From an uncultured Planctomycetia bacterium (GTDB taxonomy: Bacteria > Omnitrophota > Gorgyraeia > 1-14-0-20-64-10), in contig CAYJVR010000003.1 in assembly GCA_964373715.1 (NCBI GenBank), positions 47,050 through 111,049 of the forward strand: a stretch of DNA of 64,000 bases, read 5' to 3'. The position numbers were made by a program, and so were the translations under genes. Positions 10,641 to 58,144 of the stretch are shown here, piece by piece; the stretch's first letter is position 1; each line of letters starts with the position of its first letter. Under the pieces are notes generated by a model, which saw only the letters and a program-made list of their open reading frames with translations, was not told the DNA's origin and did not search any database.

Positions 10641-10710
10641 TACCCCACCACCTGTTTAAGCATTTTCATTATAAGTTTGATGCTGTCCCCACCCAAAACA
10701 GGTGGTGGGG

Positions 10711-11100
10711 TTACATGATCTTTCCAGTTGCCGGGTTGAAAAACAGGATGACCCACGTCCCGAGGATGAGAAAAACACCTCCCACGAAGTAGATCCCCCT
10801 GATCGAGATTCCCCTCAGAGGCTGTTTCAGGTAATCGTCCGCCAGAATTCTCAAACCGTTCAAACCGTGGAGCATCGCCAGCCAAAGCATCGCCAGGTCA
10901 TACGCGCGCCAGAAAAGGTGCATGTAACGCTGCGCGACAAAATCATAGCTAATCACGTGGATGCTGTTGAAGATATGCATGATAAACATGTGCCCGACCG
11001 CCAAGAGGACCAGCACGAGGCCGGAGTAGCGCATGAAGAGCCAGGTAAACAGCTCCGAACCTCCGGAGGGCCTGGGGCGCGAACCGTAGGAGGAGCTCAC
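10711..11100 (-). CDS. sdhD: Succinate dehydrogenase hydrophobic membrane anchor subunit
   Basis: Three-TM C-terminal part of the 241-aa ORF. A GTG at 11100 overlaps the sdhC stop (GTGA). An alternative ATG start is at 11034. The upstream part of the annotated ORF is GC-rich and unlikely to be coding. Confidence 0.6.
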   Translation of the reverse strand: MSSSYGSRPRPSGGSELFTWLFMRYSGLVLVLLAVGHMFIMHIFNSIHVISYDFVAQRYMHLFWRAYDLAMLWLAMLHGLNGLRILADDYLKQPLRGISIRGIYFVGGVFLILGTWVILFFNPATGKIM

Positions 11101-32133: not shown

Positions 32134-32433
32134 TCAAGCAGGCTGGAGAATCTCGGCGAGCTTTTCGGGATGGAGACGGCGCAATTCTGGAATCCTATAC
32201 TCCTCCGCCAGTTGTGCAAGCTTTCGATGTACCTGGACTGTGACTTTTCGGGGACGAACCCATAGAAGCTCTATTCCAACAAGATCCCCTTTGCTGTCCA
32301 AATCAAGATTCACAAAATCAGCATATTCTACAGTCTTCGAAACAGACTTCTCGCTCAAAGCGATATAGCTGGCTTTTGCTTGCGGATCATACGTTATCTC
32401 TAATATTTTAATCATCTTATGGAATCCACCCAC
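32134..32433 (-). CDS. DUF2283 domain protein (antitoxin-like partner of DUF4258)
   Basis: 99 aa, MKILEITYDPQAKASYIAL...GDLVGIELL pattern. Local GC clearly below the flanks. Confidence 0.6.
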   Translation of the reverse strand: MGGFHKMIKILEITYDPQAKASYIALSEKSVSKTVEYADFVNLDLDSKGDLVGIELLWVRPRKVTVQVHRKLAQLAEEYRIPELRRLHPEKLAEILQPA

Positions 32434-32651
32434 CCTGCAGTGATAACAATGATATTATCTCTATCCAATTCTACTACAGCAAAACAGGTTCTGCTTCCTA
32501 TTTCCTTCCAAAATTTCATTGTTCTGAGGAGCTTCCCAGGACTCTTTTTATCTGAATAACGCACTGTAGCGCGGATATGGTCGGGCGTTACCCCTCTCTG
32601 TTTCATTCTTTTATGAACGTGGTGGGTATAAATGAATCGCTGCATGACCAC
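32412..32651 (-). CDS. DUF4258 domain protein (toxin-like)
   Basis: 79 aa with a conserved HVxxRMxQRGV-like N-terminus. Overlaps the DUF2283 gene by 22 nt in an AT-rich island. Confidence 0.55.
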   Translation of the reverse strand: MVMQRFIYTHHVHKRMKQRGVTPDHIRATVRYSDKKSPGKLLRTMKFWKEIGSRTCFAVVELDRDNIIVITAGWVDSIR

Positions 32652-32757: not shown

Positions 32758-34230
32758 ATGGCTAAGACACTGTTTGAAAAGGTGTGGGACCCGCACGTCG
32801 CGGTGCAGAACCCCGACGGCACGGTCCTGCTTTACATTGACCGCCACCTGGTGCATGAGGTCACCTCGCCGCAGGCCTTCGAAGGGCTGCGCCTGACCCA
32901 CCGGAAAGTGCGCCGGCCTGAGCTCACGTTCGCCACGATGGACCACAACGTGCCGACCTCCGCCACAGAGCGAGGCGGATCCGCCTCAGGCGGAAACGAC
33001 CGGATGAATATCGCCGACCCAATCTCGAAGGCGCAGATCGACGCCCTTTCAGAAAACTGCCGAGAGTTCGGTATTACCCTCTATGACTTGAAATCGGATA
33101 AACAGGGGATCGTCCACATCATCGGGCCGGAACTGGGGATCACCTTGCCCGGCTCAACGATCGTCTGCGGAGACTCCCACACCTCGACGCACGGGGCGTT
33201 CGGCACGCTGGCGTTCGGGATCGGCACCTCCGAGGTGGAACACGTGCTGGCCACCCAAACCCTGCCCCAGAAACGGCCGAAGACCTTTAAAGTGGAATAT
33301 ACAGGCACCCTGAAAGCCGGCTCAACTCCCAAGGACATGGTCCTGAAGATGATCGGGTTGATCGGCACCGCCGGCGGAACCGGCTACGTGATCGAGTACG
33401 CGGGCGAGGCTGTGCGGAAACTCTCGATGGAACAGCGGATGACGATCTGCAACATGACGATTGAGGCGGGAGCGCGGGCCGGCATGATCGGGCCGGATGA
33501 GACCACGTTCCAGTACGTCGCCTCCGGCAACCGGCCGTTCGCGCCGAAAGGGGCGAATCTCGAAAAGTCCCTGGCCTATTGGAAGACTCTGCCCTCCGAC
33601 CCGGAGGCGAAATTCGACCGGACGCTCTCTATCAACGCCTCGGAGATCGCACCGCAGGTCACCTGGGGGACAAACCCCGGCATGGTGATGGATGTGACCG
33701 GGCGGATCCCGGAACCGGACAAGGTGCCAGGCTACTCCCGGAAGGATGTCGAGCAGGCGCTCGCCTACATGGGGCTTACCCCCGGCACCCTGATCACCGA
33801 GATCAAGCTGGACCTGGTCTTCATCGGCAGCTGCACCAACGGCCGGATCGAGGATCTGCGGAGCGCGGCGAAGATTTTCAAAGGGAGAAAGGTGGCCAAA
33901 GGGATCAAAGTGCTGGTGGTCCCCGGCTCCGAGCAGGTGCGCAAGCAAGCGGAGAGCGAAGGGCTCGACAAGATCTACAGGGAGGCCGGCTGTGAGTGGC
34001 GGTTCGCCGGCTGTTCGATGTGCCTCGGGATGAACCCGGACCAGCTGAAGTCCGGCGAACGGTCGGCTTCGACGTCAAACCGGAACTTCGAGGGGCGGCA
34101 AGGCAAAGGGGGGCGCACCCACCTGGTCTCGCCGGAGATGGCGGCCGCCGCCGCGATCGAGGGGCATTTCGTGGACATCCGCACGTGGAATGAAAAACGA
34201 AAGGAAACCCTTACCCTTCCCTCTCCCTGA
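32758..34230 (+). CDS. leuC: 3-isopropylmalate dehydratase large subunit
   Basis: Aconitase-family Cys ligands and the [11 protein letters not shown] start. The stop codon sits in the loop of a GC-rich palindromic repeat. Confidence 0.9.
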
Positions 34231-34252
34231 GGGAGAGGGTTAGGGTGAGGGG
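34208..34252. repeat. GC-rich palindromic repeat, family R2, copy a (the leuC stop is in its loop)
   Basis: CCCTTACCCTTCCCTCTCCC-tga-GGGAGAGGGTTAGGGTGAGGGG, a near-perfect ~20-bp-arm hairpin. Confidence 0.7.
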
Positions 34253-34260
34253 AAACCAAG

Positions 34261-34872
34261 ATGCTGCAGCCGTTGAAATCGCACAAGGGACTCATCGCCA
34301 CGCTGGACAAGGCCAACGTGGACACCGACCAAATCATCGCGAAGCAATTCCTGAAATCGATCAAACGAACCGGCTTCGGGGAATCCCTCTTTTTCGACTG
34401 GCGCTATCTGCCCGACGGCAAGCCGAACCCCTCTTTCGAACTTAATGACCCGCGGTTTAAAGGGGCCTCCATACTCGTCACCCGGAACAATTTCGGCTGC
34501 GGCTCCTCGAGGGAACACGCGGTCTGGGCGGTGGTCCAGTACGGCTTCAAAGCGGTGATTGCCCCGAGTTTCGCCGACATCTTCCGGAACAACTCGATGA
34601 AGAACGGCCTTTTAACGATCGAGTTGGAGGAACCGGAAGTGGAGGAGATCTTCCAGATGACCGGCCGCTATAAAGGACTCGAGGCAACGGTGAATCTGGA
34701 AGAACAGCGGATCACTTTGCACACGACGGAAGAGATTTCATTTCACTTCGAGATCGAACCTTCTGTGAAGGACCATCTGGTCCGGGGGTTGGACTCCATC
34801 GGACTAACGCTCAAGCAGGAAAACCAAATCGCGGCTTTTGAAAAGAACCACGACACCCAACTCTACCGCTGA
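34261..34872 (+). CDS. leuD: 3-isopropylmalate dehydratase small subunit
   Basis: 203-aa aconitase swivel domain. Confidence 0.9.
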   Translation: MLQPLKSHKGLIATLDKANVDTDQIIAKQFLKSIKRTGFGESLFFDWRYLPDGKPNPSFELNDPRFKGASILVTRNNFGCGSSREHAVWAVVQYGFKAVIAPSFADIFRNNSMKNGLLTIELEEPEVEEIFQMTGRYKGLEATVNLEEQRITLHTTEEISFHFEIEPSVKDHLVRGLDSIGLTLKQENQIAAFEKNHDTQLYR

Positions 34873-34875
34873 CCC

Positions 34876-37800
34876 TTACGCGTACATCAAGATGAAGTGG
34901 GCCCTTCCCTCCAGATCGGTAAAAAGTATCCCCTGCACATTCTGCGATGGGGGGATATTCAGCGTGTTTCGGAAAATCAGAACAAGCATCTGGACAGGGT
35001 CCAGGGCGGACACCGCCTCGGCTGTCGGATAAACGCGCACAGAGGCCATTTTCTCTGGCTTTACCTTCAGAGAATCCAGCATTTCGTTTTCGAGGATCAA
35101 GCCTATCTCTCCCCAGTTAAACCTGCGGAGCTCCTCTTCGGTCTCCGGAAGGACGGCCAACCGGAACGCAACACCGGCCAGAGGACCGGGCAGATGCTCC
35201 TTCGCTACCTTGTACAGTTCGGAACTTTGGACGTAAACGGGAACAACCGTCAAATCGAGCGTTGCCGTCACCGCCCGAGCTCCCTGCCTCCCCATGAACT
35301 CCTCTATCCTGTTCTGCTGTTTCTCAGTTAAGCGGCTGGAATATTCCGGCAGATAACTTTCCAAAATAGTTTTGGCGGTATGAATCTCTATGCCTTGAAT
35401 CGTCAGCGGCACAGCGGATATCTCTTTCCGGAAGGCGCTGCCGCCGACTCCGGTTTGCTTAAAATCAAACCTGCCTGCAATCCGGGCCATTTCACCGTTG
35501 TCCGACGAGTCGTTCACCCGTACCTCCTGCACCCCCGGTACCACCATTAAAGACCACAGAAGCTCCTGAAATATCCTCGCGCCTATTCCGACGGTCTGCA
35601 GGTCCTGTTGGACAGTAAATTCCGATATCCGCCCAACTGAAGGGGCCTCAGCATCGATCTCCGCGACCCCGAACCCAATAAGATCACTTCCCCGTCGCGC
35701 CCCCACGGCAAAACGTCCGTCTGCCTGAGACAACAGCTCCACGACGGCCTGGATGGGGGAGGGGTTTTCTTCCAAACTGGGAGCCAATCCGGCCGGCCCG
35801 CCCCGCAAGACCGGCTTCGGGAGATCCACCCTTCTCAACGGAAGCTTCATGACTTCTTGATTCTTCGCGTAGGAATACCACCGCATAGGAACCGCCAGAT
35901 ACTGCGCCTCCGATACGGAGCTGGCATGGACCATCACCACCTCGTTCATCCAAAGGGAGGGCTCAAAAGGCCCCCCTTCGTCCCACCGGCCGAAATTCAC
36001 CCTCAAGTTGTATTCGGAAAGATCCGGATAAACGAACTGCACAATCTCCGGCGTTGCGGCGTACACGAGAAAATTATTGCCCCGCGCCCAATCGGCAATG
36101 AGATCAATAGCTCCGCGTCTCCAAACATCCAGAGTACGGCACTGCAGCTGGTTGAACTTTTTATAGCCGTCGCCCGGCCGGGCTTCCTGAATCAAGACGG
36201 CAATCCGACCCTGTTTTGTCAAATAGGTGCTGACGAGAATCTGGCCGAACGCGCCTGGAGCCGCGGCGTAGTCCCCTCCTCCGTTAAACTGAAGAACCTG
36301 CAGCTCGGGATGGCTCTGAAAATCGCCGTAGGGAAAAACCTGGACTCTGTCATACTGACCTACCTGCATCTGGGCTTCCATGTTCCCGTACCGCTCTGTC
36401 TTCCAGCTAAATCTCCCGTTGGTCTTCAGCCAGCCCGCCAGATTACGGGAGAACACTCCCGGCACTTCAACCCCGCGCAACTCCGTCACAAACCCTCCGG
36501 GGCCGGCGGCAAACTCCGGCCTGAGAGCCCGCCAATAACGGCTCGGGAATAGCACTCCCGGCACCGGTTCATAACCCAGACTGCGGGCGGCGGCAACAAT
36601 CGGCTCATCCGGGTCATCGGCGCTCACTAAAGAGATCCCAATCCCCTGCTTTTCGAAATGGGCCTGGGCGGAGGCAAGCAGATTTCGGCTGGTTTTCGCG
36701 TCACGGTACGCCGGCAAAAGGACAAGCTCTGAAATTTGTCCGATCGATGCCGGGAAATCTTTCAGCGCACGAACGCGGACCTCGGCGAGCGCGTAACCCA
36801 CCACCCGGCCGGAACCTTCGTTCGCCACAACCAAAACCCCGAGGTCCGGGTTGCGGATCATCTCCCGGAAAAATCCCTTGCCCCCATCCTTGCCGGACTG
36901 TTTTGTCTCTAGCCCGGCTTGCTGTCTGAGTTGGATAACTTGGCCGAGGATCGGCTCTAAAACACTGTCGTCCCGGTTCTGAACGGGCCTGACCCCAATC
37001 TCTTCCAGGCCTGCCTCCGGCCCATTTGGGACCACCGGCTGCTGGGGCTCTGCCGGCAACTGCGCGGCGGCTGGAGGCTGCGCCGGCCGGCCGATATAGC
37101 GGTACCAGTTGAACTCTTTTGATTCATCGGTAAAATGGGATCTGCGCAAAATAAGAGGAACCGTTTCCCACCGCCGCGGCTCACGATCGGCCACCGGTAA
37201 ATAATAGTTGTACTGGATTGTCTTTTGCCGGATATCCGGCCGCTGTCCGCGCGCCTGTTCCGGCCGAATCAGATAGACCTCCATCCCCTGGCGCTTTCCC
37301 CATTCGCCGATGGCTTCAATGATTTCAGAGCGGATCTCGATTTCGTCCGGATGCTCCAAATTCAGCGGCCCGGCCAAGATCTGAACCCTTTCGATCACGA
37401 TGGCATCCTTGCCCTGCTCATCCTCATACCGGTCTAAGTAAACATGAACAAGCGCCCTGCCCAAATGAAAGTAATTTTGCCAAAGAAGGTTCCGCACCAA
37501 AAAATCATTTAACTCCGGACTGGTTTCAACCCACTCATTCAGGGCAATAGCGCCGATGATATTAAACGGCTTATCCCTGTCCACAAACCGGAGCGCAACC
37601 CGGGCCCGCCCATAATGTTCCGTATCCCTCTGAATCTCGCCGTACTGGATAAGGTACTGGTCCAGTTTGTCGGCCAAATCTCCCATCTTCACACGCATGA
37701 GGACCGGCGCCTTGGAAACCTCTGGTTCCTCCATGCCAGCCTTTCCTTTATAGAGAAACCAGAAGGCTTCCCCCTCCAACGTTGTGAGCAATGAGCCTGA

Positions 37801-38577
37801 AATCTTCAGAGGGGCCGATTCCCACGCCGCCCCATCGACAGACTCTTCATAGTTGCGCAGTCTGGTTGCCTCCCTCATATTGGGAAGGACCTTTTGAATA
37901 AGATCCGGCTGTATGAGATGTACAGGAATGCCGCGCGCTCTGCCCCACTCCCCGATCGCCTCCAGCAGAAGCGAGAGCCTGCCGGAAATCTCTTCCGAAT
38001 GATCCAAGCGGTCCACCCCGGCTAAGACCTCCACCCTTTCAATAAGCAGATGGTCTTTCCCTTCGGCCGTCTGGTAGCGGGCCAGCGACACCTGGACAAG
38101 CCCAGGGCCCAGATCCTCATAATTCCAGTTTGGAAGAACAACCAGATTCCCCTGGAGAACAGGCTGTGCCGACACCCATTCCCATGCCCCCAAAAGGGCC
38201 GCGGTGCCGGTAGCCTCGTCGTTCTGCACTATCCGCATGAAAACTCTCGCCTGGCCGTAGGCGGCCGTATCAAACCGGCTCTCTCCCCTCCGGGTCAACG
38301 CCTGGTCGAGATCTTCGGCAAGATCCCCTAAGGGGACCCGTTTCAAAACAAGCGGTTTTCCTTGCCGGACGGAAGGAGATTTTGGCCTGGAGATTTCCAG
38401 GGTAGCCGGCTGGGAGACGCCCGGAAGGCTGGACTTTGACTGGGGCACATCCACCAGGGAGTTGACGAGCTGCTGATCGAGACTCGCCCCTTCCGACGCG
38501 TTAGTTTGGCGCATCGCGAAGGCAGGCGAAGGTGTGGCAAGCAATAAGCTTAAACCAACGCTTATTGCCCGGCGCAT
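34876..38577 (-). CDS. Large secreted hypothetical protein: signal peptide, tandem duplicated ~200-aa domain of unknown function, then two GNAT-like acyltransferase-fold domains
   Basis: Signal peptide MRRAISVGLSLLLATPSPAFA. Residues ~85-290 and ~300-510 are clear paralogous repeats (VLKRVPLGDLAEDLDQ... versus VLMRVKMGDLADKLDQ..., both carrying an IERVxxLAG...EAIGEWGxxxG motif). There is a GNAT motif-A-like VQQDLQTVGIGARIF near residue ~1000 and a degenerate GNAT around residue ~650. The ORF track starts it 11 codons further upstream (38610). Confidence 0.6.
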   Translation of the reverse strand: MRRAISVGLSLLLATPSPAFAMRQTNASEGASLDQQLVNSLVDVPQSKSSLPGVSQPATLEISRPKSPSVRQGKPLVLKRVPLGDLAEDLDQALTRRGESRFDTAAYGQARVFMRIVQNDEATGTAALLGAWEWVSAQPVLQGNLVVLPNWNYEDLGPGLVQVSLARYQTAEGKDHLLIERVEVLAGVDRLDHSEEISGRLSLLLEAIGEWGRARGIPVHLIQPDLIQKVLPNMREATRLRNYEESVDGAAWESAPLKISGSLLTTLEGEAFWFLYKGKAGMEEPEVSKAPVLMRVKMGDLADKLDQYLIQYGEIQRDTEHYGRARVALRFVDRDKPFNIIGAIALNEWVETSPELNDFLVRNLLWQNYFHLGRALVHVYLDRYEDEQGKDAIVIERVQILAGPLNLEHPDEIEIRSEIIEAIGEWGKRQGMEVYLIRPEQARGQRPDIRQKTIQYNYYLPVADREPRRWETVPLILRRSHFTDESKEFNWYRYIGRPAQPPAAAQLPAEPQQPVVPNGPEAGLEEIGVRPVQNRDDSVLEPILGQVIQLRQQAGLETKQSGKDGGKGFFREMIRNPDLGVLVVANEGSGRVVGYALAEVRVRALKDFPASIGQISELVLLPAYRDAKTSRNLLASAQAHFEKQGIGISLVSADDPDEPIVAAARSLGYEPVPGVLFPSRYWRALRPEFAAGPGGFVTELRGVEVPGVFSRNLAGWLKTNGRFSWKTERYGNMEAQMQVGQYDRVQVFPYGDFQSHPELQVLQFNGGGDYAAAPGAFGQILVSTYLTKQGRIAVLIQEARPGDGYKKFNQLQCRTLDVWRRGAIDLIADWARGNNFLVYAATPEIVQFVYPDLSEYNLRVNFGRWDEGGPFEPSLWMNEVVMVHASSVSEAQYLAVPMRWYSYAKNQEVMKLPLRRVDLPKPVLRGGPAGLAPSLEENPSPIQAVVELLSQADGRFAVGARRGSDLIGFGVAEIDAEAPSVGRISEFTVQQDLQTVGIGARIFQELLWSLMVVPGVQEVRVNDSSDNGEMARIAGRFDFKQTGVGGSAFRKEISAVPLTIQGIEIHTAKTILESYLPEYSSRLTEKQQNRIEEFMGRQGARAVTATLDLTVVPVYVQSSELYKVAKEHLPGPLAGVAFRLAVLPETEEELRRFNWGEIGLILENEMLDSLKVKPEKMASVRVYPTAEAVSALDPVQMLVLIFRNTLNIPPSQNVQGILFTDLEGRAHFILMYA

Positions 38578-38747
38578 TGAGAGTGGCGTGTAGGCAGAAT
38601 CTATGATCATCTTATCTTTACAATCCAGTCAACCTATTAAGAAGTATGTCTGAAACAGGGCTAGAAATACAAGGGATAAAACAAGATTTATATTCCTTTA
38701 CTAGCTGAACGTGGGATTATTGTCATTGCGGGGGTTTACGCTGGCTT

Positions 38748-52244: not shown

Positions 52245-52568
52245 GTGATCACGTTAACGGAGAAAGCAGCGAAGAAAGTTCAAACACTGCAGGAATCGGA
52301 AGGCAAACCCGGATACGCGCTGCGGATCAAAGTGGTCGGCGGAGGATGTTCGGGCTATTCCTACGCGATGGATTTCGAAAAGGAACCGGCTCCGGAAGAT
52401 GCCATCTTCGATACCCAAGGGGTCAAACTGCTGGTGGACCCGAAATCTCTGCCGATGATTGACAATACGGAGGTGGATTGGGTTGACGCCATGACAGGGG
52501 CCGGCTTCACGCTCCAGAACCCGAACGCGAAGGGGTCGTGCGGCTGCGGCCATTCGTTCTCAGTCTAA
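52245..52568 (+). CDS. Iron-sulfur cluster insertion protein, A-type carrier (SufA/IscA/ErpA family)
   Basis: GGGCSG ... C-terminal SCGCGHSF motifs. Confidence 0.9.
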   Translation: MITLTEKAAKKVQTLQESEGKPGYALRIKVVGGGCSGYSYAMDFEKEPAPEDAIFDTQGVKLLVDPKSLPMIDNTEVDWVDAMTGAGFTLQNPNAKGSCGCGHSFSV

Positions 52569-52582
52569 TGATTTGATGAGGG

Positions 52583-52628
52583 CCCTCACCCTACCCTCTC
52601 CCTCAGGGAGAGGAGAAAGGTGATGGGG
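52583..52628. repeat. R2 palindromic repeat copy b (between sufA and sufS)
   Basis: CCCTCACCCTACCCTCTCCCTCAGGGAGAGGAGAAAGGTGATGGGG, a degenerate copy. Confidence 0.6.
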
Positions 52629-52656: not shown

Positions 52657-53895
52657 ATGCTTGATGTGAAGAAGATAAGAGAAGATTTCCCGATCCTGGG
52701 GCGGATGATAAAGGGCAAACCCCTCGTCTACCTGGACAACGCGGCCACTTCCCAAAAACCAAAAGTGGTGGTGGACGCCCTGGTAGACTATTACACCCAG
52801 CACAACGCCAACGTCCACAGGGGAATCCATTCCTTGAGTGAGGAGGCGACTGCGCTGTACGAAGGGGCCAGGGAAAAAACGGCCCAGTTCATCGGCGCCC
52901 CGAAACCGGACATGGTCATCTTCACCCGAAACACAACCGAAGCAATCAACCTGGTCAGCCACGGGTGGGGCCTAAAGCATATCAAGAAAGATGACGAGAT
53001 CCTGCTGACTGAGATGGAACACCATTCAAACCTGGTCCCCTGGCAGGTGCTCGCCCAGCGACAAGGGGCCCGTTTAAAATTCATCCCGGTGACAAAAGAA
53101 GGTACGCTGGCTCTCGAAAAACTGCCGGGGCTCCTGACCGACAGGACAAAGCTTGTTTCGGTGACCCTTATGTCAAACGTGCTGGGGACGATAAACCCTG
53201 TCAAAGAGATCATCCGGGCAGCGCACGCCAAAGGGATACCGGTGCTGGTGGACGGCGCCCAGGGGGTCCCTCACCTGCCGGTGAACGTGATGGACTTGAA
53301 CTGCGATTTCCTGGCATTCTCTTCGCATAAGATGCTCGGGCCGACCGGCGTGGGCATACTTTACGCGAAAGAGGCGATCCTTGATGAGATGGACCCGTTC
53401 CTCTTCGGAGGGGACATGATCAAGGATGTCTGGCTCGATCACTCTACATGGAACGACCTGCCCTGGAAATTCGAGGCGGGGACCCCGAACATCGCGGATG
53501 TGATCGCCTTCGGCGCGGCGGTGGATTACCTCCGTAAAATCGGCATGGATGAGATCCGCCGGCACGAGGAACATCTGACCGGGTACACTCTCGACGCCCT
53601 GCGCAAGATAGAGGGCATTACGATTTACGGACCGCTCGACCCGAAGATCCGCGGAGGGGCCGTTTCCTTTAACATCCAGAACGTGCACCCACACGACCTG
53701 GGGCAGATATTAGACGACGCCGGGGTAGCCATACGGGCCGGGCATCATTGCTGCAAACCGCTGATGCGCATATTAGGGGTCGTCGCTACGGCCCGCGCCA
53801 GCTTTTACCTGTACAACACGAAAGAAGAGGCAGACGCGCTCGTCGATGCCCTTCACAAAGCAAAGGAGCTATTCTCCGTTGTCTCTCACAGATGA
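52657..53895 (+). CDS. sufS: Cysteine desulfurase, SufS subfamily
   Basis: PLP Lys region (SSHKMLGPTG) and a C-terminal catalytic Cys loop (RAGHHCCKP). Confidence 0.9.
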   Translation: MLDVKKIREDFPILGRMIKGKPLVYLDNAATSQKPKVVVDALVDYYTQHNANVHRGIHSLSEEATALYEGAREKTAQFIGAPKPDMVIFTRNTTEAINLVSHGWGLKHIKKDDEILLTEMEHHSNLVPWQVLAQRQGARLKFIPVTKEGTLALEKLPGLLTDRTKLVSVTLMSNVLGTINPVKEIIRAAHAKGIPVLVDGAQGVPHLPVNVMDLNCDFLAFSSHKMLGPTGVGILYAKEAILDEMDPFLFGGDMIKDVWLDHSTWNDLPWKFEAGTPNIADVIAFGAAVDYLRKIGMDEIRRHEEHLTGYTLDALRKIEGITIYGPLDPKIRGGAVSFNIQNVHPHDLGQILDDAGVAIRAGHHCCKPLMRILGVVATARASFYLYNTKEEADALVDALHKAKELFSVVSHR

Positions 53896-57769: not shown

Positions 57770-58126
57770 TCATCCCTCATCAAGAAGACTCGGCCTGCAG
57801 GCCTCACAGCCGCAGAGAGATCTCAGGTATTCATAAGAATAAATCCCGGTCGCATGCCCATCGCTCCACCGGATGGTCAACGCGTAACGTCCGACAGGCT
57901 GGATCTCCTGCGGCCGCACATCAGCGAAAGATCGCCCCCTCACCCTGCCCTCTCCCCCTTCAGGGGGAGAGGGATCGGGTGAGGGGATCTCGCCGCAAGC
58001 GGCGCAGGGGCATGCGGCGCGCAAATAATCCCACACATAGAGACTTTCATGGCCATCCGCCCAAACGACCTTCAACGCGGTCTGCCCGACCCGCTCCACG
58101 CTCGCTGGCTCATGGCTTAAAAGCCC
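57770..58126 (-). CDS. Tandem DUF971 (gamma-butyrobetaine hydroxylase-like N-domain) protein. Start uncertain; the ORF extends to 58282.
   Basis: Two copies of the VxWxDGH...YLRxxCPCAxC module, joined by a linker that is encoded by a GC-rich palindromic repeat. Confidence 0.5.
   Translation of the reverse strand, partial: GLLSHEPASVERVGQTALKVVWADGHESLYVWDYLRAACPCAACGEIPSPDPSPPEGGEGRVRGRSFADVRPQEIQPVGRYALTIRWSDGHATGIYSYEYLRSLCGCEACRPSLLDEG
57935..57986. repeat. R2 palindromic repeat copy c (in-frame inside the tandem DUF971 gene)
   Basis: CCCTCACCCTGCCCTCTCCCCC-ttca-GGGGGAGAGGGATCGGGTGAGGG. Confidence 0.7.
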
Positions 58127-58144
58127 CATGCTACAATAACCCTC

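Follow-up and report, generated by a model that had tools for sequence, protein, structure and literature searches.

BoxC/PIT/TMECO palindromes in housekeeping loci of an Omnitrophota-like genome and their association with YcjD-like DUF559 nuclease genes

Catalogued in E. coli since the 1990s, the BoxC repeats have so far been assigned neither function nor origin nor partner gene. The 56-bp sequence, present in about 32 copies, was found a second time as ‘PIT elements’ and has since received the name TMECO (Bachellier 1999; Hoyne & Maher 2000, 2002; Holder et al. 2015, PMC4666352). In vitro, single strands of the E. coli motif fold into a stable triplex, its copies were described as ‘always intergenic’ and the family was reported from 262 proteobacterial genomes; TMECO loci showed raised between-strain variability, and the authors stated that no mobility gene had ever been found nearby (PMC4666352). 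In the same account, PIT elements are cited as having neither promoter nor terminator activity in E. coli (Hoyne & Maher 2002, cited in PMC4666352). Here we describe three GC-rich palindromes in a 64-kb stretch of DNA (64,000 nt, the window) from the metagenome-assembled genome (MAG) of an uncultured Omnitrophota-like bacterium (contig CAYJVR010000003.1, positions 47,050 to 111,049). By their sequence they belong to the BoxC/PIT/TMECO family and not to a new one; two of them, at the leuC-leuD junction and inside a DUF971 gene, are derived insertions, and elsewhere the same motif brackets a conserved nuclease gene of the DUF559 family related to E. coli ycjD. What is new here is thus the host, form and position of a known repeat family.

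The palindromes, 45-52 nt in length, lie at 34208-34252, 52583-52628 and 57935-57986, where the original prediction had placed them from the letters of the window. The left arm CCCTCACCCTNCCCTCTCCC, with up to 3 mismatches, gave 3 matches in the window compared with 0.02 expected, and the inner hairpin CCCTCTCCC-N1-12-GGGAGAGG was confined to the same three loci (0.00 expected). All three were found by pattern search; a generic inverted-repeat scan (<=80 nt apart) did not list them, a silence that is uninformative, and Rfam returned 0 matches at gathering score over the whole window. The asymmetric orientation of copies 1, 2 and 3 is identical, all on the + strand, at a density of 3 copies in 64 kb of the source genome. 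The copies and their host or neighbouring genes are as follows.

32758..34230, + strand: leuC, Pfam Aconitase over residues 8-470 of 491 translated
34208..34252, + strand: copy 1, compact double triplex-motif palindrome, CCCTTACCC-TT-CCCTCTCCC-TGA-GGGAGAGGG-TTA-GGGTGAGGGG
34261..34872, + strand: leuD, Pfam Aconitase_C, ATG at 34261
52245-52568: iscA/sufA-like gene, Pfam Fe-S_biosyn
52583..52628, + strand: copy 2, partly decayed, right arm GGGAGAGGA-GAA-AGGTGATGGGG
52657-53895: sufS, Pfam Aminotran_5
57770..58129, - strand: DUF971 (GBBH-like_N) gene hosting copy 3, Pfam PF06155 in two stretches
57935..57986, - strand: copy 3, 51-52-nt palindrome inside the DUF971 gene, read in frame as PSPDPSPPEGGEGRVRG

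Positions 34219-34252 of copy 1 are identical over 34 of 34 nt to TMECO no. 17 of E. coli K-12 (Table 1 of Holder et al. 2015, PMC4666352), and a 35-nt stretch of this copy was recovered by megablast at 100% identity in 2724 of 5426 complete E. coli genomes. The E. coli sequence contained in copy 1 folds in vitro, as single-stranded DNA, into an intrastrand purine-motif triplex. The TMECO pattern, 5'-CCCTCNCCC-N3-6-GGGNGAGGG-N3-GGGNGAGGG-3' (Holder et al. 2015), is matched in its strict form by copy 1 at 34219-34251 and in a relaxed form, on both strands, by copy 3 (stem 11 bp, formal loop 8 nt, second spacer 2-3 nt), and fails at copy 2, which carries 3 substitutions in the G blocks. The family unit consists of a 9-bp GC hairpin (CCCTCTCCC-loop-GGGAGAGGG) and a third block, either GGGTGAGGG or CCCTCACCC depending on the side; in the window the copies are compact, a single hairpin serving two inverted units, and carry the triplex motif on both strands. 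In common with the E. coli repeats, the window copies show the three blocks, the TTA spacer of ‘type A’, the lack of a terminator signature and, judging by 3 copies in 64 kb, probably a dispersed multi-copy distribution. They differ in their Omnitrophota-like host, in the third block on both sides of the hairpin, and in their position around a stop codon and in frame within a gene; a DUF559 partner is likewise absent from the BoxC/PIT/TMECO literature.

Predicted RNA folding gave -39.6 kcal/mol (z -5.2) for copy 1, -27.3 kcal/mol (z -1.6) for copy 2, whose right arm is degenerate (GGAGAAAGGTGATGGGG), and about -49 to -51 kcal/mol (-49.1, z -5.4) for copy 3. No U-tract was present 3' of any stem, the sequences there being GAAACCAAG, AATTTGAGT and ATCTCGCCG for copies 1-3, and the flanks of the three copies showed no consistent target-site duplication. 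The G-rich arms are all canonical G-quadruplex motifs as well (G3N1-7 x4, with four G3 runs and 1-3-nt loops), and hairpin, triplex and G-quadruplex would therefore compete for one sequence. These arms are:

34231-34252 and 57963-57986, + strand: G-quadruplex motif arms with G3 runs
34208-34227, 52583-52602 and 57935-57958, - strand: G-quadruplex motif arms with G3 runs

A CRISPR, an attC site or a tandem array was considered and rejected, the copies lying 18 and 5 kb apart and not being arrayed. Contamination or a chimeric assembly was likewise discarded: each copy is flanked on both sides by sequence of one gene or operon, with matches to Omnitrophota-type homologues. The closest named homologues of LeuC and of the DUF971 protein are from ‘Candidatus Omnitrophica’, and genes identical to those of the window are present in groundwater-type metagenome runs.

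One arm of the motif, with 19 specified bases, was found in at least 120 stretches of a species-representative genome collection. Among the matches listed, the labels of the MAGs carrying it cover more than 15 different phylum-level names, including Rokubacteria, Planctomycetes, Nitrospirota, Nitrospinaceae, Chloroflexi, Acidobacteria, Verrucomicrobia, Elusimicrobia, Melainabacteria, Omnitrophica, Ignavibacteria, the candidate phyla radiation (CPR; Uhrbacteria), Thermodesulfobacteriota and several proteobacterial classes, and 91 of 131 arm matches have the exact partner GGGAGAGG directly after a variable loop. Nearly all arm matches run on into the hairpin, which argues that they are the same element and not chance similarities. 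The reading as an interspersed, multi-copy palindromic family, proposed from the three window copies, was thus borne out, and chance GC-rich similarity, which would have gained weight had only these three copies existed, fails decisively in view of the stretches found in the collection and the E. coli genomes mentioned above. Most units elsewhere are single, with a hairpin and one third block. The compact double form is rare (5 of 142 units, about 4%) and is typical of the Omnitrophica, Nitrospirota and Rokubacteria matches; plausibly it arises from paired units collapsing onto one hairpin, an event that Holder et al. (2015, PMC4666352) observed in strains of E. coli, where paired inverted units became a single stem-loop.

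At copy 1, the leuC stop codon TGA (34228-34230) forms the 3-nt loop between CCCTCTCCC (34219-34227) and GGGAGAGGG (34231-34239), and the final LeuC residues, TLTLPSP, are encoded by the left arm, in agreement with the original prediction; the 13-residue LeuC tail and the stop codon derive from the spacer together with copy 1. In an alignment of LeuC homologues sharing 75-85% identity, nearly all proteins stop 1-3 residues past ...DIRTW, a few have short unrelated tails, and none has the 13-residue tail of the window. A syntenic relative (L126, LeuC 85% identical) has overlapping leuC and leuD genes (ATGGCGCTAA) with no repeat at the junction, and represents an empty site. The empty site and the tail-free homologues show that the insertion of copy 1 is derived. 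Two of the three frames entering copy 1 meet a stop codon within the element. Two short-read contigs from other samples (L004 and L005) begin within copy 1, at 34223 and 34224, as expected of a multi-copy palindrome.

Upstream of the leuD ATG, nothing but the right arm of copy 1 (GGGTGAGGGG, 34243-34252) resembles a Shine-Dalgarno sequence; its predicted pairing energy to the anti-Shine-Dalgarno sequence is -7.7 kcal/mol compared with a median of -4.05 for 42 long open reading frames (ORFs) of the window, and this arm is paired in the minimum-free-energy structure of the hairpin. Copy 1 has replaced an overlapping leuC/leuD junction, and ribosomes finishing leuC would open the hairpin and free the Shine-Dalgarno-like sequence, so that leuD translation probably depends on leuC termination, the coupling being preserved in a new form. 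In a second relative (L127, 85% identical), the leuC-leuD spacer contains a different GC-rich repeat of 118 nt (L127 2921-3040) with translations like ..FDKLRTNG.., and repeats of unrelated families seem to favour this junction as a hot spot.

In the suf operon, copy 2 lies within the 88-nt spacer between the iscA/sufA-like gene and sufS, 15 nt after the former and 28 nt before the latter, and is an intercistronic copy in decay. Copy 3 adds 51 nt, or 17 codons, in frame to the linker that joins the two conserved halves of the DUF971 protein, the start of which was set at MGLLSHE following its homologues. Alignment with other DUF971 proteins showed the invariant residues to be intact on both sides of the insert. 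The nearest homologue (P0122, 81% identical) has no insert in a protein-level comparison, which indicates that the insertion of copy 3 is also derived, and a more distant one (P0123/L129, 65% identical) has a near-identical 51 nt following the same codon. With a length that is a multiple of 3, an open frame, intact domains and absence from a close homologue, copy 3 is, as judged from these alignments, a tolerated in-frame insert in the DUF971 linker.

The motif occurs in both orientations relative to genes, within ORFs, and beside unrelated genes in many phyla. A search of stop-to-stop ORFs across the motif gave 61 candidates, many of them false coding calls in GC-rich loci, and for this reason only Pfam-confirmed cases were used. 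In-frame units with Pfam domains across them were found in an Eco57I-type methylase, where the unit sits between FPDVF and GFDCVIGNPPW, in Hydantoinase_B, Cmk (cytidylate kinase) and CtaA/COX15 proteins, and in Map (methionine aminopeptidase) of a CPR bacterium; a further in-frame unit lies in the linker of a GlcF-like Fe-S protein. From these reading frames, in-frame insertion appears general for the family, a property not described for BoxC. The rule that the repeat lands at gene ends, as first proposed, does not hold, since one window copy and several copies in other phyla are in frame inside genes. Selection at the protein level for a ‘PSP..GEG’ peptide was rejected as an explanation, as the repeat is read in different frames (TLTLPSP in LeuC, PSPDPSPPEGGEGRVRG in DUF971, PHPxPLPxGE in DUF559) and in both orientations, and is also intergenic. 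Among 212 solo units, the length distribution of flanking direct repeats was that of a shuffled control, giving no target-site duplication, and the surrounding sequence gave no signal of a target consensus.

Two further observations concern units elsewhere. In a Nitrospirae MAG (L027, ~4692), the ORFs of the N- and C-terminal transketolase subunits are joined in one frame through a unit (..SAAPLTLPSPSRGEGKGEK..), which may be a repeat-mediated gene fusion. In seven Planctomycetes loci (L012, L024, L076, L085, L090, L116 and L117), a conserved ...AGTTATTTTTCGTTCG... follows the unit after 10-15 nt; on the opposite strand this stretch suggests a gene end (..EK*), with a paralogous family recurrently carrying the unit past its stop codon.

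In the 120 motif-selected loci, a DUF559 gene was found three times, abutting the motif each time. This association was examined in an independent sample of 80 metagenome loci chosen by DUF559 peptide patterns alone, with a query lacking the C-terminal tail. There, 82 strict hairpins lay within 200 nt of the ORF (2.69/kb) compared with 3 beyond 300 nt (0.023/kb), and at least one hairpin was present at 49 of the 80 loci with the strict pattern and at 62 with the loose pattern. The order is fixed: hairpin-spacer-GGGTGAGGG, 10-60 nt, the ORF, and then CCCTCACCC-spacer-hairpin. Upstream units were of the hairpin-G-block as opposed to the C-block-hairpin type in a ratio of 17:0, and downstream units were C-block-hairpin by 20 to 1. 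The two flanks are inverted repeats, with loops and spacers that are often reverse complements, and the C-terminal tail of the DUF559 ORF (..PHPxPLPxGE..) is encoded by the right unit in a conserved frame. Hairpin-encoded peptides were present in 28 of 120 DUF559 homologues, compared with 0 of 120 LeuC and 2 of 120 DUF971 proteins. On a 6.7-kb contig (L226), a composite of ~75 nt is inverted around DUF559, with solo copies 3-5 kb off.

The flanked gene was assigned to DUF559 (PF04480/PF18741) and not to a Y1 transposase; the catalytic-type motif D[FY]..E.DG..H was present in 119 of 120 proteins and at 78 of 80 loci, and relatives of the YcjD-like proteins in the PDB are 3HRL and the homing endonuclease I-Bth0305I (3R3P). 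Among the papers searched, none of those mentioning DUF559, PF04480, COG2852 or ycjD links it to BoxC. These arrangements, read from contigs and genomes, establish a physical association of the motif with a conserved DUF559 nuclease gene that is strong and apparently unreported. Two side observations relate to the same loci: at L226 and L270 the composite (C-block-hairpin1, 16 nt, hairpin2) occurs 3-4 times per ~6.8 kb, inverted around DUF559, and at L139 (335-1190) a tandem pair of DUF559 copies has motif units between them.

In E. coli K-12, ycjD (DUF559) ends in ...RRSPSP*, with the TGA in the loop of a degenerate unit, as for leuC of the window, and TMECO no. 9 follows after 168 nt. The interval between the two holds a partial duplicate of the ycjD 3' end (L131, NC_000913.3 1351240-1351400), which suggests that the DUF559 unit was once duplicated in tandem or rearranged. 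Of 5426 E. coli genomes, 3378 carry ycjD, once each; in phylogroups A, B1 and C it sits in the fabI-sapF interval, eefRABCD being found there in the others (PMC12817139). ST69 and ST182 also have ycjD, in a D/E background. The TMECO numbers per strain considered here are published counts. Strains CFT073, UTI89, IHE3034, S88, APEC O1, SE15 and LF82 are taken by us to be of phylogroup B2. These and similar strains have 0-2 TMECO copies, phylogroup D, E and F strains 6-15, and K-12, BL21, HS, 55989, IAI1, SE11, W and E24377A 13-30 (PMC4666352), the last group being of phylogroups A and B1 (also given as A/B1/C). Repeat load tracks ycjD, a correlation that is supportive only because it is confounded by phylogeny.

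Several known systems share features with these repeats. The original prediction had called the palindromes typical of REP or MITE-like elements. Like REP/BIME repeats and REPINs with their RAYT partner (TnpA-REP, a Y1 transposase), members of the family consist of a short GC-rich hairpin with a conserved single-stranded tail, number tens to hundreds per genome, either solo or paired and without target-site duplication, and have a single-copy partner gene between inverted repeat copies. REP identity was however not upheld, as the sequence is that of the separate, already described BoxC/PIT/TMECO family and is unrelated to REP, with no GTAG tetranucleotide; moreover, the partner is a PD-(D/E)xK Vsr-fold nuclease instead of an HUH/Y1 transposase, and REP types are species-specific and extragenic whereas the BoxC motif is nearly invariant across phyla. 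Miniature inverted-repeat transposable elements (MITEs) such as Correia/NEMIS of Neisseria and ERIC are similarly small, non-autonomous palindromes that can be co-transcribed, alter the expression of neighbours and extend ORFs. The classical MITE label was nevertheless not supported, as MITEs make target-site duplications and none was found here. MITEs also have terminal inverted repeats matching a DDE transposon; inverted units do flank a gene here, one that encodes a PD-(D/E)xK nuclease and not a known transposase.

The in-frame behaviour of the window motif is shared with the Rickettsia palindromic elements (RPEs), which are unrelated to it in sequence. RPEs, said to have been described by Ogata et al. 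in 2000, are reportedly palindromic repeats of 100-150 bp, restricted to Rickettsia (and Wolbachia), that lie in frame in coding genes and give peptides in loops or linkers without destroying the protein. To our knowledge they have no partner enzyme. I-Bth0305I (3R3P) and the Vsr/DUF559 structure 3HRL share the catalytic fold of the YcjD-like genes and provide a precedent for a selfish element; however, the I-Bth0305I gene is in a phage group I intron and has no flanking palindromes, and Vsr is a housekeeping T/G mismatch nickase.

Taken together, we consider it probable that the window palindromes are non-autonomous BoxC/PIT/TMECO copies, derived in housekeeping loci, of a selfish, wide-host family partnered by YcjD-like DUF559 nucleases. 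The firm parts of this reading are the identity of the family, the derived nature of copies 1 and 3, the tolerance of units in coding sequence and the DUF559 association. We propose, with somewhat less than even confidence, that the YcjD-like nuclease has the hairpin/triplex structure as its substrate and is what makes the family spread without target-site duplication. In the proposed mechanism, the partner would be a Vsr-fold PD-(D/E)xK nuclease, its gene flanked by inverted motif copies, which would recognise the hairpin/triplex module and cause units of ~35 nt to spread, in frame into essential genes too. More tentatively still, the motif and the nuclease might constitute one selfish, REPIN/RAYT-like system across much of the bacterial domain; if true, a single nuclease-motif system would explain the presence of the same 34-mer in E. 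coli, Omnitrophota, Planctomycetes, CPR and others. The lack of target-site duplication and target consensus speaks against transposition of the DDE type and would fit a route that is single-strand, REP/IS200-like or templated by repair, and the ~35-nt solo units in essential genes suggest that the single unit is itself what is inserted.

A number of points weigh against a partnership of this kind. No transposition intermediate is known, in addition to the missing duplication and consensus at the 212 solo units, and ~35-nt solo in-frame units in essential genes are hard to derive from a unit of ~450 bp. No DUF559 gene lies within the 64-kb window, just 3 of 131 motif-selected copies abut one, and hairpins were seen at 5 of 57 DUF559 homologues on viral contigs; these low numbers imply that the link concerns a YcjD-like subclade and not all DUF559 genes. 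Phage carriage had been considered given the occurrence of the motif on 111 IMG/VR stretches, yet was not supported on the same viral-contig count, and those contigs may be host DNA. In a Gastranaerophilales MAG (L032, 2400-2845), priA holds a complete in-frame DUF559 domain bracketed by two inverted units, inserted just before the Walker A motif, and here the arrangement is reversed, with the C and G blocks outermost. The triplex was not detected in vivo in E. coli (PMC4666352), the relation between ycjD and TMECO numbers is confounded as stated above, and the evidence for the coupling of leuD is a generic anti-Shine-Dalgarno sequence and a thermodynamic fold only.

Among the alternatives, one in which the causality is reversed bears directly on the DUF559 association: the palindromes would spread by other means and DUF559 would be a homing-type or addictive passenger at existing palindromes. 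The DUF559/Vsr fold does include a bona fide homing endonuclease (3R3P; PMC3424549), the insertion of DUF559 with two units in frame inside priA is what such a passenger might look like, and solo units of ~35 nt insert alone and far outnumber DUF559 genes. However, the flanks are true inverted repeats with a fixed ORF polarity and a protein tail supplied by the right unit, indicating a co-evolving unit, and a single gene alongside 20-30 repeats in each E. coli genome matches the RAYT/REP pattern; we therefore regard a passenger role as unlikely. An origin as a DNA-structure element (intrastrand triplex, G-quadruplex or cruciform) that promotes genome plasticity locally and has no enzyme of its own, as hypothesised by Holder et al., draws on the stable triplex in vitro and the greater variability of the loci between strains (PMC4666352) and on the G-quadruplex motif in each G-rich arm. 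It leaves unexplained the letter-identical stems, the common spacer types (TTA, CA) and even loops across phyla, as well as the fixed, inverted order of the units around a single family of nuclease genes, and local variability is equally expected near an active or formerly active mobile element; with no triplex detected in vivo (PMC4666352), this explanation seems improbable.

The remaining alternatives attribute a function in RNA to the repeats. As host-selected elements, they could act as intercistronic mRNA stabilisers or processing barriers with translational coupling, tuning leuCD and suf. Copies 1 and 2 are indeed intercistronic within operons, the hairpins of copies 1 and 3 are very stable (-39.6 and -49.1 kcal/mol, z about -5), the leuD Shine-Dalgarno-like stretch is in an arm of copy 1, and BIME and boxC repeats are stated, in a review-type account, to be transcribed and able to stabilise mRNA (PMC3738161). 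Such a role is nonetheless doubtful for the family as a whole: its units are found in both orientations, inside ORFs and beside unrelated genes of many phyla, relatives manage without copy 1 (overlapping leuC/leuD in one, a different repeat in the other), and copy 2 is decaying, so that any effect on leuD may be a local side effect or exaptation of copy 1 and not the raison d'etre of the family. The original prediction had also suggested terminators or attenuators at gene ends, on the strength of a GC-rich stem-loop after or around the stop codon, as seen at copies 1 and 2. This did not survive scrutiny and is very improbable, since a U-tract follows none of the three copies, no + strand terminator was called at copy 1 and the single minus-strand match is at chance level (1 vs 0.8 expected), copies 1 and 2 separate genes that need co-expression, copy 3 is upstream of the conserved C-terminal half of DUF971, and the PIT elements, in the work cited in PMC4666352, were without terminator activity in E. 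coli.

The same sequence thus exists far outside Proteobacteria and can also lie within coding sequence, altering the ends and linkers of proteins, and ycjD, an uncharacterised gene of E. coli, becomes together with its relatives a testable candidate partner. If the association is causal, it would define a new class of nuclease-driven repeat, explain the differences between E. coli strains in repeat load and in genome instability near the repeats, and give a source for the odd ‘PSP..GEG’ peptide segments, thousands in number, of proteins in the databases. Regardless of mechanism, the palindromes break short-read contigs and make false C-terminal extensions, and warrant masking in many phyla.

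Other features of the window were noted in passing. Directly 5' of leuC, a DUF2283 gene and a small overlapping ORF lie on the - strand (32134-32651); the same upstream pair is DUF4258/DUF2283 in L127, with a toxin-antitoxin-like look, and is absent in L126, where DHFR abuts leuC. At 34876-38610, also on the - strand, a 1244-aa protein shows only faint repeated matches to GNAT acetyltransferases and is conserved in a position convergent to leuD in relatives (1155-1244 aa). The top entry of the generic inverted-repeat scan was a perfect 16-nt inverted repeat, ACCCCACCACCTGTTT / AAACAGGTGGTGGGGT, at 10642-10711 with a 38-nt spacer.

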